Assembly (NCBI GenBank): GCA_004297735.1
Contig: SCTI01000002.1
Coordinates: 350,180-414,179 of the forward strand
Reading direction: 5' to 3'
DNA length: 64,000 nt
Origin: Patescibacteria group bacterium
Lineage (GTDB): Bacteria > Patescibacteriota > Saccharimonadia > UBA4664 > SCTI01
The position numbers were made by a program, and so were the translations under genes. The notes under the pieces are model-generated. The model was given only the letters and a program-made list of their open reading frames with translations. It was not told the DNA's origin and made no database searches. Of the stretch, positions 13,430-19,305 are shown in pieces. Each line of letters starts with the position of its first letter. Position 1 is the first letter of the stretch.

Positions 13430-13506
13430 ACGAGCTGTAAATTGGGGCTGCTAGATATAAGCGTAACTGCTATAATATATGAGATAATTGAGAGCACTGT
13501 ACCGAG

Positions 13507-14349
13507 GTGGGATTACGGCACCATTACAAGTTGTTGACTGGAACCGCTCCAAGGCAAACGCTAGGAGTGGTGGTGGCTGTGGTAGTAACCCTAGCGCTGG
13601 CGGCTCCGGCAGTGGTAGCAGCAGCGATCAGCCAGAGCTACCGTGGCGATCAGCAGATTGCAATTGGGGCCTTGGTCGCGTCCAAGGGTGATAGTAGTGA
13701 TCAGGTTGAGTTGGCCGATAGCTCAAATGCCGATAAGCTGGTTGGCGCGGTGGTTGGTGGCAGTGACACGGCGCTAAATCTGTCTAACCCGGGTGATCAA
13801 GTGCAGGTGGCGAGTAATGGCCTAACCAAGGTAATTGTGACCGATCTGCAGGGCGACATTACCAGCGGCACGCAAATTGCCCCATCTTCGATTAAGGGCG
13901 TGGGCGCCAAGGCGACCTCCGCCACCAAGGTGATTGGAGTGGCCCAGAAGGCGGCCGAATACGGCGGCCAAACCGCTACGGTATCGGATAGTAGTGGCAA
14001 GAGTAAACAGGTAAAAATTGGCACGGCAGAGGTTTTGCTGCAAATTGCCTATTACAGTCCACCGCAGTCGAACACTCAGGTGCCACAGTTTTTGCAGCAG
14101 GTAGCCAACTCGGTGGCTGGCCGCGAGGTAACCACCTGGAGAGTGATTACAAGCTTTATCATTTTGATGGCAGCCATTATTGTAATTACGGTACTGCTGT
14201 TTTCGTCGGTGCACAGCACGCTAACGGCGATTGGTCGTAATCCGATGGCGCAGGTTAAAATTTATCGCGGGTTACTAAGGGTGGTGCTGGCGGCTGTGGC
14301 AATTTTTGCGGTGGCGGTTGGAGCGGCCTTTATAGTATTAAGGTTGTAA
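13507..14349 (+). CDS. atypical first gene of the atp operon: signal-peptide/Ser-Gly-rich protein with C-terminal subunit-c-like hairpin lacking the carboxylate
   Basis: Alternative GTG start at about 13570 after aggag. C-terminal helix-loop-helix (..TAIGRNPMAQVKIYRGLLRVVLAAVAIFAVAVGAAFIVL) resembles the c-subunit ARQPE hairpin, but helix 2 has no Asp/Glu. Confidence 0.45.
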   Translation: MGLRHHYKLLTGTAPRQTLGVVVAVVVTLALAAPAVVAAAISQSYRGDQQIAIGALVASKGDSSDQVELADSSNADKLVGAVVGGSDTALNLSNPGDQVQVASNGLTKVIVTDLQGDITSGTQIAPSSIKGVGAKATSATKVIGVAQKAAEYGGQTATVSDSSGKSKQVKIGTAEVLLQIAYYSPPQSNTQVPQFLQQVANSVAGREVTTWRVITSFIILMAAIIVITVLLFSSVHSTLTAIGRNPMAQVKIYRGLLRVVLAAVAIFAVAVGAAFIVLRL

Positions 14350-14353
14350 TGAG

Positions 14354-14974
14354 GTGAGTATGACAGAAATTCTTTATGCCGTTATTGGTCTTCAAATCCT
14401 ATTAACCGGGCTGGTTGTAGTTGTGTTGTGGCGGGCCCGCCGGCCGGTCAAGCCTGCCGCTAAGCCAGCCGTTTCGGCCGCCAGCGAAGCCGAGCTGCGT
14501 CAGCAGATCGAGGCGCAGCAGCAAGCCATGCTCAAGCGACTACAGGAGGAAACCCAGAGCTCATTTGAGCAATCGGTGAGCGAATCATCAAAACTGTTTC
14601 GATCGGACCTGGCCGAAACATCTAAAAAGCTCAACACCTTGATTGTGCGCTTAACGACCGAGGTGGTTGAACGGGAGCTAGATGAGTACCGTCAGAGCTT
14701 GGTGGCTGCTCGCCAACAAGCCTTAACCAGTTTGCAGCAAATGCAGCAGTCGGTCGAAGAAAAGCAGCGTGCGCTGGAGGCCGACGTTAACAGTGAGCTA
14801 GCTAAACGGCAGCAGTATCTGTTGGAACGCCTGGATCAGCGCCTGGGACAGGCGGTAACCTCTTACCTAGTCGAGGCGCTGGGCCAAGGGGCCGACTTGG
14901 GGGCTCAGCGTGAGTACTTGTTGGCTCAGCTCGAGGCGCATAAGGATGAGTTGAAAAAAGAGGTCAAGCAGTGA
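14354..14974 (+). CDS. atpF: F-type ATPase subunit b-like (N-terminal TM plus long coiled coil)
   Basis: Single TM then charged coiled-coil, positioned before delta. Confidence 0.55.
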   Translation: MSMTEILYAVIGLQILLTGLVVVVLWRARRPVKPAAKPAVSAASEAELRQQIEAQQQAMLKRLQEETQSSFEQSVSESSKLFRSDLAETSKKLNTLIVRLTTEVVERELDEYRQSLVAARQQALTSLQQMQQSVEEKQRALEADVNSELAKRQQYLLERLDQRLGQAVTSYLVEALGQGADLGAQREYLLAQLEAHKDELKKEVKQ

Positions 14975-16858: not shown

Positions 16859-17709
16859 AGCGCGCGTTAGTGATTCAGGATGAGCTAAAGAAGGTCGACA
16901 CGATTCAGGACATGGCTTCGGTGTTTGAGGCGGTGGCGAGTATCCACATTGCTCAAATTAAAGACCAGGTAGTCGCTTCGACCAAGTTCTTTCATGAGCT
17001 GTGGAATTTATACAGCCAGCTAAGAGTCGACGAAAAAGAGCTAGGTCGCGAACGCAAGGACTTGATTAAAGACCGAGAAGCGGTGATCGCGGCGACCTCG
17101 GATGGCTCGCTGATTGGTGACATTGATGAGCGGATTATGACGGCGATGTTAAATCATCCCAACCTGGATAAAGCCGATATCTACGTGATTGGAGCGCATG
17201 GTGTTACTTTGCTGTCGCGGCGTGGTATTCGGCCCAAACAGGCCTTCCGGTTGCCAGAAAAAGACCAAAACATTCAGGTGGGTCCAATTGCCGAGGTTCT
17301 AAGTAAGTATCAGCGGGCGACCATGTACTATCAAACCTACGTTTCATTGCTACATCAAGACATTGCCCGGATTGAGCTGTTTAGTGCTGTGGCGGCGCTG
17401 GGCCAAAAAGCCGCCGCCGGAGATGTTATTTCGAGCCGCGATTACATCTTTGAGCCGTCTCTGCCCGAAGTTATAAACTATATGGAGTCGGTGATGCTCG
17501 AAATCGCTCTTGGTCAGATCATGCTTGAATCTAAGTTGGCTCAATACGCCAGTCGCTTTAACGCCATGCACGCGGCCAAGTCTCGAGCTAACGACATGCA
17601 GTCGGACTTAAAGCTCAATCTGCATCGGGCGTTACGGTCACAGGGGGATGAGCGAACTCGCGAGATAATGAGTAGTATAAAAGTTACCAATGGAGTGAGC
17701 CGTGGCTAA
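16855..17709 (+). CDS. atpG: F-type ATPase subunit gamma
   Basis: C-terminal ...[38 protein letters not shown] matches the conserved gamma C-terminal helix. Confidence 0.8.
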
Positions 17710-19051
17710 AGTAGCAACCAAGACAACCAAAGACAGTGTAGCCGGAAAGCGCTACGGCATGGTGACGGCGGTTAACAGTTTAACGGCGGTGCTGACTTGG
17801 GTGGGCGAGCCGCCGGCAATTCGCGAGCTGCTAACCATAAAAAAGGGCGAAAAAACCGCCACACTCGAAGTTCGGTCATTTGAGCAAAACGCCCAAGTAA
17901 CCGCCATTATTCTAGAAGGCGTACCTCAGGTTGTGCGCGGATCAAAGGCGGAGGCCACCGCTCAAACCATTACGGTGCCGGTGGGGCCATCGACCTTGGG
18001 GCGAATGTTTAACGCCCTGGGTCAGCCAATCGACGGTGGCGCCGATTTAAAAGAGGCTCCGCGCAAGTCAATTTATGAGGTTAAGCCAGCGGTTCAGCTA
18101 GCTAAAGCCGAAACTCCGCAGGTGCTTGAAACCGGCATAAAGGTAATTGATTTCTTTACCCCGTTTGTTAAGGGCCGCAAAATCGGCATTGTGGGTGGCG
18201 CCGGTGTTGGTAAAACGGTGCTAATGATGGAGCTGATTCACAACGTGGCGCGTGATGGCAAAAGTTTGTCGCTGTTTGCCGGTATCGGCGAGCGGATTCG
18301 CGAAGGTCATGAGCTGTATGAAACCTTGCGGGCGCGTAAGCTGCTGGGTTCGGCGGTGATGTTCTTTGGTCAGATGAACGAGACGGCGGCATTGCGCTCA
18401 ACCGTGGGCATGACGGCAGCGGCTTTAGCGGAGCACTTTCGTGATGAAGAAAAGCGTGACTCGCTGTTCTTTATTGACAACATCTACCGCCATATTCAGG
18501 CAGGAAACGAGCTGTCGACCAGTATGGGGCAGATTCCTTCGGAGGGCGGATACCAGGCGACCCTGTTTTCGGACCTAAAACAGCTGGAAGATCGCCTTTA
18601 TTCAAACCAACAGGGTTCGGTTACATCGGTGCAGACCATTTACATACCGGCCGATGATATTAGCGATCCGGCGGTACAGGAGATTCAGCAGCAGCTTGAT
18701 TCGGTAATCGTGCTGTCTCGGTCGGTGGCAGAAAGCGGCATTAGACCGGCGGTAGATTTAATCCGCACCAGCTCCTCTTTGCTGACGCCAGAAATAGTTG
18801 GCGACCGTCACTATATGCTGGTAACCAGCGTTCAAGCGATCATGCAAAAGTATGATTCGCTTAAGAATATCATCACTATTATTGGCGAAAATGAGCTAAG
18901 TCCAGAGGATCGTCAGCAGTACCAAAAGGCTAAAAAACTGATTCAGTTCTTCCACCAAGACTTCTTTGTATCGGAGGAGCTAACCGGTAAGCCGGGGCAG
19001 TTTGTGAGCTTGGCCGACACCCTGTCGCAGCTTGAGGAGATCTTAATTTAA
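17702..19051 (+). CDS. atpD: F-type ATPase subunit beta
   Basis: P-loop GGAGVGKT and the GERIREG catalytic region. Confidence 0.9.
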
Positions 19052-19305
19052 TGGCTGAGCAGCCGCGTTTTAAGGTTAAGGTTTTTTCGCCCTACCAAAC
19101 CTTTTACAAGGGTACCGCGTTGTCGCTTTCGGCCCAAAACGCTACCGGCCCGTTTGATGTGCTGTTTAACCACGGCAACTTCTTTACCCTAATATCTCCG
19201 GGGATTGTAAGGGTGGATACCGGTTATGATACGGTCGAAATTGAGGTGACACGTGGCATTATGCGAGTGGCCGACAACAACGTAACGCTGTTCGCTAACG
19301 TATAG
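19051..19305 (+). CDS. atpC: F-type ATPase subunit epsilon (N-terminal beta-sandwich only)
   Basis: 84 aa, at the epsilon position, ATGA-coupled to atpD. Confidence 0.6.
   Translation: MAEQPRFKVKVFSPYQTFYKGTALSLSAQNATGPFDVLFNHGNFFTLISPGIVRVDTGYDTVEIEVTRGIMRVADNNVTLFANV

Follow-up and report, generated by a model that had tools for sequence, protein, structure and literature searches.

The stretch of DNA analysed here (64,000 nucleotides, positions 350,180 to 414,179 of contig SCTI01000002.1 in the Patescibacteria group bacterium assembly GCA_004297735.1, lineage Saccharimonadia; hereafter the window) carries on its plus strand, at 13507-19305, a cluster of seven genes that encode, in this order, a 280-residue membrane protein termed X280, a b-like protein, and the delta, alpha, gamma, beta and short epsilon subunits of an F1-type ATPase. 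The cluster is likely to represent a second F1-type ATPase, found across the lineage, in which the membrane sector is non-canonical and ion-blind. With rather less assurance, we favour as the overall reading a second F1-type ATPase whose membrane sector does not handle ions, which is driven by ATP, and which acts on surface fibres; mechanical coupling of the ATPase to these fibres is put forward only tentatively.

The F1 part of the cluster is readily identified. The products of the genes for delta (OSCP; 14971-15444, 157 residues), alpha (15437-16858, 473 residues), gamma (16855-17709, 284 residues), beta (17702-19051, 449 residues) and epsilon (19051-19305, 84 residues), all on the plus strand, were recognised by both Pfam and NCBIfam. 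The alpha/beta head gave PF00006 matches at 230 and 211 bits, the divergent gamma matched PF00231 at 105.6 bits, and the likewise divergent delta matched PF00213 at 31.2 bits, above the Pfam cut-off. When aligned to solved F1 structures, beta displays an intact P-loop (GGAGVGKT), GERIREG motif and Walker B motif, and alpha an intact P-loop (GDSKTGKST) and Arg finger (SRVGG); the head thus has the Walker A and B motifs, the catalytic Glu and the Arg finger by which a canonical F1 is recognised. All five recognisable subunits nevertheless fall under the NCBI equivalog cut-offs for atpA, atpD, atpG, atpC and atpH: beta reaches 448.8 bits with the atpD model TIGR01039 (cut-off 462.85), alpha 381 bits with the atpA model TIGR00962 (cut-off 484), gamma 79.9 bits with the atpG model TIGR01146 (cut-off 194), epsilon 48 bits with the atpC model TIGR01216 (cut-off 67) and delta 27.4 bits with the atpH model TIGR01145 (cut-off 57.5). 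By these profile scores, the five F1 subunits are a divergent set. The epsilon subunit consists of the beta-sandwich domain alone, with PF02823 extending over residues 7-83 and TIGR01216 covered at profile positions 2-79 of 130, and is devoid of the C-terminal helical domain. In canonical enzymes, the C-terminal domain of epsilon inhibits hydrolysis.

The remaining component of a peripheral stalk is probably provided by the b-like protein (14354-14974, + strand, 206 residues), which is predicted to have one N-terminal transmembrane (TM) helix followed by a long helical region. No match to a b subunit, including PF00430, was found for this protein in Pfam, NCBIfam or the PDB, and a search of the PDB with its profile returned apolipoprotein-type helices only. 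The genes for the F1 and stalk subunits had previously been described as a clean, translationally coupled series from b to epsilon with intact catalytic motifs in beta; the F1 and stalk genes, the overlaps and the motifs stand, the b subunit being assigned from position and architecture only. Adjacent genes overlap by 1-8 nucleotides, apart from a gap of 4 nucleotides between the X280 and b-like genes, and none of the seven reading frames is disrupted. A promoter and terminator scan of 12900-23500 gave sites no more numerous than in shuffled sequence and did not define the transcription unit. Taken together, the sequences point to a catalytically competent alpha3beta3 head with gamma, a short epsilon, and a stalk of delta plus the b-like protein.

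X280 (13507-14349, + strand) is the first gene of the cluster and fills the slot of atpB and atpE, the genes for subunits a and c. Its GenBank record (TAK89156.1 / EPO04_03595, 'hypothetical protein') has the start placed 22 codons later. The protein matches no family in Pfam or NCBIfam, and PHROGs yielded nothing useful for it, for the b-like protein or for the small flanking proteins. In an AlphaFold2 model built on 11 homologs (mean predicted local distance difference test (pLDDT) score 73.6), an N-terminal hydrophobic helix that is a putative signal peptide or signal anchor (residues ~18-40; 13558-13626, +), with its hydropathy peak at residues 21-39, is poorly predicted, with low pLDDT, and is followed by the conserved motif ISQSY. 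The putative extracellular, beta-rich domain (residues ~41-205; 13627-14121, +) is well predicted, with a pLDDT of 80-90 at residues ~41-182 and a short helix thereafter. What had been taken for a low-complexity stretch rich in Ser, Gly, Thr and Gln is instead modelled as a folded beta domain of ~165 residues.

The C-terminal part of X280 (residues 210-280; 14134-14346, +) is a two-helix membrane hairpin, modelled as two long helices (210-244 and 246-279), with the loop G243-R244-N245-P246 (14233-14244, +) at the turn. Nowhere is the family better conserved than in this loop: every one of 60 aligned, diverse members has R244, N245 and P246, and G[RK][NQ]P is found in 159 of 160. From the positive-inside rule and the model, it is predicted to be the sole stretch of mature X280 that faces the cytoplasm. 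Helix 2 of the X280 in the window contains neither Asp nor Glu, and across the family an Asp or Glu at any single position of this helix occurs in at most 16 of 159 members; as far as can be read from the alignment, the carboxylate-free, 'dead' site is a property of the whole X280 family. The claim that a single open reading frame (ORF) in the a/c slot encodes an N-terminally extended, c-like hairpin without a carboxylate is borne out, and the loop AIGRNPMA noticed at the outset is confirmed.

No a subunit was found to accompany this hairpin. All ORFs of the window were scanned for hydropathy, and the ten polytopic ones were run against Pfam; none of the ten matched ATP-synt_A (PF00119), in agreement with the earlier claim that the window holds no a-like polytopic protein, and no canonical c subunit was found in the 64 kb either. 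Eight of these ORFs belong to TatC, AcrB, MurJ, ComEC, VIT1, DUF998, DUF7144 and an NqrB/RnfD-FNR fusion, and of the two others one has sub-threshold matches to MARVEL and Colicin_V only and one has no family. A 296-residue ORF (3259-4149, - strand) was considered as a hidden a subunit and rejected, as it has a large soluble domain, no a-like motif and no Pfam family. Beyond the window, 85 related loci were searched up to 10 kb from X280 with the E. coli a subunit and with a hidden Markov model (HMM) of subunit c, and neither gene was found. Since there is neither an a subunit nor a carboxylate, this combination could not move ions through a canonical a/c interface, as the preliminary description had concluded.

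Whether the hairpin is related to c subunits is a separate matter. It superposes on F-type c subunits at 1.4-1.8 Å over 67-71 residues; designed helical hairpins superpose about as well, so the fold alone is not diagnostic of c homology. A profile of 44 hairpins, searched against 177,635 distinct PDB sequences, gave just two matches at E<=10, both of them F-type c subunits: that of Chloroflexus aurantiacus (E = 0.016), which has an identical AIGRNP loop, and c2 of Acetobacterium woodii (E = 0.42). Both are in register through helix 2, with the Glu of c landing on a hydrophobic column of X280. The R-(Q/N)-P loop of c subunits is the contact site for gamma and epsilon, and in X280, too, the two helices of the hairpin are joined by a loop of this kind, predicted to be cytoplasmic. 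Other searches gave no match: PF00137 (ATP-synt_C) is absent from the Pfam results at E<=1 for X280 and at E<=10 for the 44 isolated hairpins, the same Pfam scans returned no AtpZ or AtpI and TM noise only, and in a reverse search with a 7-sequence c profile beta subunits outranked X280 by virtue of Gly-rich motifs. With hhalign, the loop was placed in register with those of seven c subunits, at a probability of only 4.9% that is too weak by itself, and the alignment consensus of X280 helix 1 lacks the glycine-rich GxGxGxG packing motif. The hairpin is thus c-like in topology, loop and operon position. It was probably derived from c, to judge from the sequences, by a homology that is borderline and not demonstrable. 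The resemblance to c proposed beforehand consequently holds for the loop in register and for PDB matches confined to c subunits, and not for PF00137 or the reverse search.

A complete genome from the same group clarifies how such a cluster relates to a genuine ATP synthase. According to its published annotation table (PMC6031116, supplementary file 2), Candidatus Teamsevenus rhizospherense has an X280-type cluster at ~380-386 kb that is separate from a canonical operon at ~1,008-1,015 kb, the latter in the order a-c-b-delta-alpha-gamma-beta-epsilon. The first cluster is taken to be X280-type because its flanks (TatD and cysteine desulfurase, then mnmA and alaS) equal those of the X280 locus L005, a comparison made from annotation, not sequence. 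Its membrane genes encode a 273-residue membrane protein without a hit, followed by proteins of 59, 206 (membrane) and 195 residues without hits, whereas the canonical operon has a (264 residues), c (72 residues) and b (178 residues) plus delta. The KEGG Orthology (KO) scores differ accordingly, at 442 bits for the X280-type and 775 bits for the canonical alpha, and at 96 bits ('questionable') and 318 bits for gamma; beta has 436 residues and 521 bits in the X280-type cluster against 465 residues and 875 bits in the canonical operon, and epsilon 109 residues ('questionable') against 143. A solo X280 gene, that is, one without F1 genes, also occurs in this genome (locus L083). Separately, K02111, K02112, K02114 and K02115 each appear three times in the table, which hints at a third F1 set, not located; a weak K02108 match to a 200-residue protein was set aside, as the gene lies between rpsB and frr and almost certainly encodes EF-Ts.

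Because a and c of T. rhizospherense lie inside a full operon of their own, the X280-type F1 most likely has a non-canonical partner. The X280-type cluster is a paralogous second ATPase in T. rhizospherense, not a truncated sole copy, and we infer the same for the genome of the window, where we expect a true H+-ATP synthase, complete with a and c, at another site on the strength of this one related complete genome. The window encodes systems dependent on the proton-motive force (PMF), namely TatC, an RND pump and MurJ (assigned by Pfam), which fits a separate PMF-linked enzyme elsewhere. Of the two possibilities originally left side by side, a and c encoded elsewhere or a non-canonical membrane partner, the T. 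rhizospherense annotation supports both for the lineage, and both extend to the window genome by inference. It had also been proposed that atpB and atpE elsewhere, together with a lack of similarity to c, would reduce X280 to an unrelated secreted protein; canonical a and c do exist in a relative, in their own operon, and the similarity to c is borderline.

These data also bear on a split canonical synthase, in which the F1 and stalk encoded here would join ordinary a and c subunits encoded elsewhere and X280 would be an unrelated or accessory envelope protein. Some bacteria do have their F1 and Fo genes at separate sites, X280 fails both the Pfam ATP-synt_C and the reverse c-profile searches, X280 paralogs occur away from F1 genes, and canonical a and c are present elsewhere in the related genome. 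However, that genome supplies its a and c with a dedicated set of b, delta, alpha, gamma, beta and epsilon, so that they need no second F1; the b-like gene is immediately preceded by X280 in 51 loci whose flanks differ; and the F1 here is a divergent, paralogous set that falls under all equivalog cut-offs, with KO scores far below canonical ones. An invariant RNP loop would, moreover, be hard to account for in an unrelated protein. We regard this explanation as quite improbable.

The X280 family is widespread within one lineage. A profile search of 1.84 billion cluster representatives returned 9456 relatives at E<=1e-3 and 674 at E<=1e-30, and a scan with an 11-sequence X280 alignment, limited to one genome per species, placed the family in 432 loci, nearly all labelled Saccharibacteria, Saccharimonadia or Patescibacteria. 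The gene order of the window cluster (X280, b-like, delta, alpha, gamma, beta, epsilon) is repeated at 51 fetched loci with unrelated flanks, which answers in the affirmative the earlier question of whether sister genomes share the arrangement; since these loci come from different species and differ in their flanks, the order is not due to chance. More than 120 Saccharimonadia relatives have a beta subunit of the same type at 60-88% identity. Where named, these are 'F0F1 ATP synthase subunit beta', and the relatives of X280 are always 'hypothetical protein'. The retention of the catalytic motifs and this degree of identity in beta indicate, at the level of sequence, that an intact F1 is under selection. 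The oral Saccharibacterium Southlakia has a single operon only, of the canonical atpI-a-c-b-delta-alpha... type, and the second F1-type ATPase is probably characteristic of environmental (soil) Saccharimonadia. A literature search found no paper connecting an 'F1-like ATPase' with the phylum of Saccharibacteria.

The same conservation speaks to the suggestion that the cluster is the decaying remnant of a synthase operon whose a and c genes were lost. Patescibacteria genomes are reduced, and F-type ATPases described as 'nearly complete' or variably complete have been noted in published surveys, which speaks for this explanation. Yet the seven frames are intact and have overlapping starts and stops, the catalytic motifs are preserved, and the gene set is kept over dozens of species with beta subunits 60-88% identical, so that decay is very hard to credit.

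Further X280 genes show some variety in arrangement. At 10105-10935 of locus L010, a second X280 gene follows epsilon, and at 3830-5527 of locus L043 two X280 genes stand in tandem. Several genomes have at least two X280 loci, for example DHXV01000001.1, in which a solo locus (L016) and an F1-linked locus (L055) are 28 kb apart. A division of the family into separate F1-linked and solo clades was considered and rejected: the nearest neighbour belongs to the same class in 77 of 87 cases, and the classes are not deeply separated. Six X280 loci (L015, L030, L035, L046, L068 and L076) stem from metagenome-assembled genomes labelled Nanoarchaeia, Nevskiaceae, Acidoferrum, Magnetospirillaceae or Bacillota; the gene content around X280 is typical of Saccharibacteria, and the labels are probably binning or labelling errors.

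A second line of evidence concerns the gene that follows the cluster. Directly after epsilon lies the gene for W1160 (19379-22861, + strand), a membrane-anchored, tail-fibre-like giant surface protein of 1160 residues that has a single TM helix, a tail rich in Pro and Ala, and an extended region rich in Gly, Thr, Ser and Asn. It bears the tail-fibre-like motif GGTG...AAGAR.NLG (GNGGTGSATAAGARVNLG) and has no Pfam family; a word-indexed search with its N-terminus recovered the short tail-fibre motif alone. The N-terminal ~350 residues are homologous to the N-termini of proteins of 700 to more than 3300 residues whose genes lie directly 3' of X280 genes. The 1.30 Mb of DNA that was fetched contains 40 genes with this N-terminal domain; an X280 gene or cluster lies no more than 1.5 kb away from 38 of them, and 36 follow it directly on the same strand. 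Conversely, a giant gene adjoins X280 or its cluster at 25 of the 51 F1-linked loci and, for solo X280, at 24 of 36 loci; among the other contigs, many end too early to tell. The basic module looks like X280 plus a giant fibre protein, with the six F1 and stalk genes inserted between them in one copy per genome. The giant proteins are probably attachment fibres of these epibiotic bacteria. The link to the adjoining giant gene was absent from the preliminary description, whose interpretation is in part supported, being largely right and incomplete.

The tight linkage of X280 to tail-fibre-like giant genes would also suit an assembly or export ATPase, whose head, seated on X280, would spend ATP on inserting, folding or trimerizing giant fibres, with the ectodomain as an external chaperone or anchor, in the manner of the F1-related ATPase of type III secretion or of the ATP-dependent autochaperone of phage phi29, gp12. 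The FliI/SctN-type ATPases are indeed related to alpha and beta. Three findings nonetheless render such a role unlikely. The cluster keeps a peripheral stalk, made up of delta and the TM-anchored b-like protein, and in known enzymes this stalk serves to resist torque; F1 models give alpha and beta much better scores than FliI/SctN models do; and the existence of solo X280 and giant genes without an ATPase implies that the ATPase is not needed for every fibre.

Small membrane proteins are a further feature of these neighbourhoods, and three families of them were numbered as clusters 0, 3 and 4. The window contains a member of cluster 4 (26632-27213, + strand; HMM E = 3e-52), a small membrane protein that flanks the X280-F1 operon in 17 other loci, and a member of cluster 0 (27222-27722, - strand; HMM E = 2e-69), a single-pass membrane protein that lies beside X280 in 31 other loci, mostly divergent and immediately upstream. 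Neither has a Pfam family, and both are possible accessory components. Cluster 3, a polytopic protein of ~200 residues with the motif EARNEV..YTN.G, is found in 17 loci, sits between clusters 0 and 4 elsewhere and is placed upstream in many of these operons, and is absent from the 64-kb window and from most loci. Such proteins enter into another explanation, in which the X280 hairpin is a mere membrane anchor unrelated to c, and gamma and epsilon have a different partner, for instance the cluster 3 protein. It draws on the borderline sequence evidence for c homology, on the conservation of clusters 0, 3 and 4 beside the operon in 17-31 loci, and on AlphaFold3 models of the Mycoplasma Type 3 ATPase (compared below), which place gamma and epsilon on a 12-TM subunit and not on the subunit with a signal peptide and two TM helices. 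Against this, cluster 3 is missing from the window and most loci whereas X280 is always present, the only PDB matches of the hairpin profile are c subunits, in register, and the cytoplasmic loop is the best-conserved part of X280. On this evidence, the anchor explanation has little probability.

The favoured reading of a second, surface-acting F1-type ATPase can be given a more explicit form. Its membrane sector would be built from X280 instead of a and c, and would bear the extracellular beta domain on its outer end, while gamma and epsilon would dock on the cytoplasmic G-R-N-P loops of an X280 oligomer. The complex would neither use nor build an ion gradient and, as no such gradient would be usable, would run as an ATP hydrolase only; the short epsilon is consistent with this mode of working. 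Torque or torsion might then pass through the membrane to an extracellular crown of X280 domains, and X280 may act on, anchor or help to assemble the giant tail-fibre-like proteins encoded directly downstream, a step suggested by the gene linkage. The most specific version, in which the F1 head imparts rotation or twist to a ring of c-like hairpins that lack carboxylates and the crown moves, tensions or deploys giant adhesins that grip the host, is speculative and, in our estimation, rather doubtful.

Several points weigh against the favoured reading. Without an a subunit, there is no known holder of the b-like anchor against the rotor, and with no identified stator partner, productive rotation is unexplained. 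The oligomer of X280 may differ from a c-ring-like 8-15-mer, because the structural relatives of its ectodomain are trimeric proteins. X280 paralogs without F1 genes occur in 36 fetched loci, from which it follows that X280 may function independently of the ATPase, and about half of the F1-linked loci have no adjacent giant gene, many of their contigs being cut short. Finally, coexistence with a canonical operon is documented in one genome only.

Should the complex move no ions, inferences on ATP synthesis and the PMF for many Patescibacteria would need to be revisited, with a and c scored separately; this is of practical consequence for the scoring of 'F-type ATPase' in genome-based metabolism. 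If the mechanical version were true, this would be a living example of a rotary ATPase in which the rotor performs external mechanical work and transports no ions. It would also add a new class to the surface motors of prokaryotes, one convergent with the F1-derived machines of Mycoplasma. The strict linkage to giant fibre-like proteins suggests a role in the attachment of these obligate epibionts, which is a central open question for Saccharibacteria. Members of this group are now genetically tractable (PMC10633639).

Other genes of the window are noted for completeness. Divergent from X280, a DsbA-like thioredoxin gene and a DsbB gene occupy 12346-13429 (- strand), and DsbA-like genes are found a few kilobases from the operon in several other loci too. 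A gene for a 661-residue protein without a Pfam family (10398-12383, +) overlaps the end of a histidine kinase gene (8978-10411). Beyond W1160, at 22927-26589 (+), a MarR regulator gene is followed by one for a 1063-residue AcrB/RND-family transporter, which implies use of the PMF and is unexpected for a reduced Patescibacteria genome. At 54759-56327 (+), an NqrB/RnfD-like membrane domain is fused to an FNR-type NAD-binding domain, apparently the same kind of fusion as the 'novel Na+-NQR-like' protein of T. rhizospherense (PMC6031116).

In comparison with known systems, canonical F1Fo shares with the window cluster the gene order from b to epsilon, the catalytic residues, gamma, the N-terminal domain of epsilon and delta, and the R-N-P loop is common to the X280 hairpin and the c subunits of Chloroflexus and mitochondria. 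By contrast, the window cluster has no a, no carboxylate in the hairpin and no glycine motif in helix 1, its hairpin carries a 165-residue ectodomain, its epsilon is without the C-terminal domain, and its subunits fall under the equivalog cut-offs. Carboxylate-free hairpins as such are not confined to X280: they occur in the V-type-like c1 of the Acetobacterium woodii c-ring (4bem), a ring that is one of the two PDB matches of the X280 hairpin profile, and in the duplicated c subunits of V/A-type enzymes (PMC9171764). Those rings, however, keep active sites and an a subunit, whereas every copy of X280 is site-less and has no a. The N-ATPase (TIGR03305/03324) resembles the X280-type cluster in being a second F-type operon beside the main one, but it keeps a, a c with an ion-binding site, and AtpQ/AtpR, whereas the window cluster has neither an a nor a c gene; the N-ATPase models are not satisfied by the window proteins either, with 412 of a required 752 bits for beta, 321 of 750 for alpha and 38 of 282 for gamma.

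The gliding motor of Mycoplasma mobile, the Type 2 F1-like or G1-ATPase (PMC8406192, PMC11864180), combines an F1-derived ATPase with very large surface proteins, as is proposed here. It is a cytoplasmic chain of dimeric F1-like units without a c-like ring and serves motility, the window system being known from its genes only, and its beta differs from that of the window in having a long N-terminal extension; window beta scores 277 bits with the M. mobile structure 9io5 against 381 bits with canonical beta.

The closest known system is the Mycoplasma Type 3 'F1-like X0' ATPase (MSC_0618-0624 / MMCAP2_0575-0581; PMC3369863, PMC12994834), although the window cluster is not a member of that family. 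Against the models for MSC_0619/MSC_0618 and MMOB1660/1670, window alpha and beta score 246, 401, 313 and 343 bits, with respective cut-offs of 520, 570, 600 and 850; all of these scores are lower than those with the canonical models, window alpha and beta being nearer to canonical F1. The Type 3 system comes from a different phylum and has a 12-TM subunit and a 19-kDa cytoplasmic subunit but no delta or b, whereas the window cluster has delta and a b-like protein but no 12-TM subunit. The similarities are nevertheless extensive. Like the window cluster, the Type 3 system comprises seven genes, has alpha-, beta-, gamma- and epsilon-like subunits and possesses a membrane sector of an unconventional kind; one of its subunits shares the architecture of X280 in having a signal peptide, ectodomains and, at the C-terminus, two TM helices; and it is found alongside a genuine F1Fo in a host-dependent bacterium of reduced genome, as, to judge from the annotation table, is the X280-type cluster in T. 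rhizospherense. It is tied both genomically and functionally to surface proteins (MIB-MIP), as the X280-type cluster is to giant fibre-like proteins by linkage, and for both systems the presumed activity is hydrolysis, not synthesis, of ATP. The Saccharimonadia would be a second independent lineage, outside the mycoplasmas, with an F1 motor on a different membrane sector, and their cluster, with its stalk retained and a c-like subunit in the position of c, would be an intermediate that helps to explain how rotary ATPases take on new tasks.

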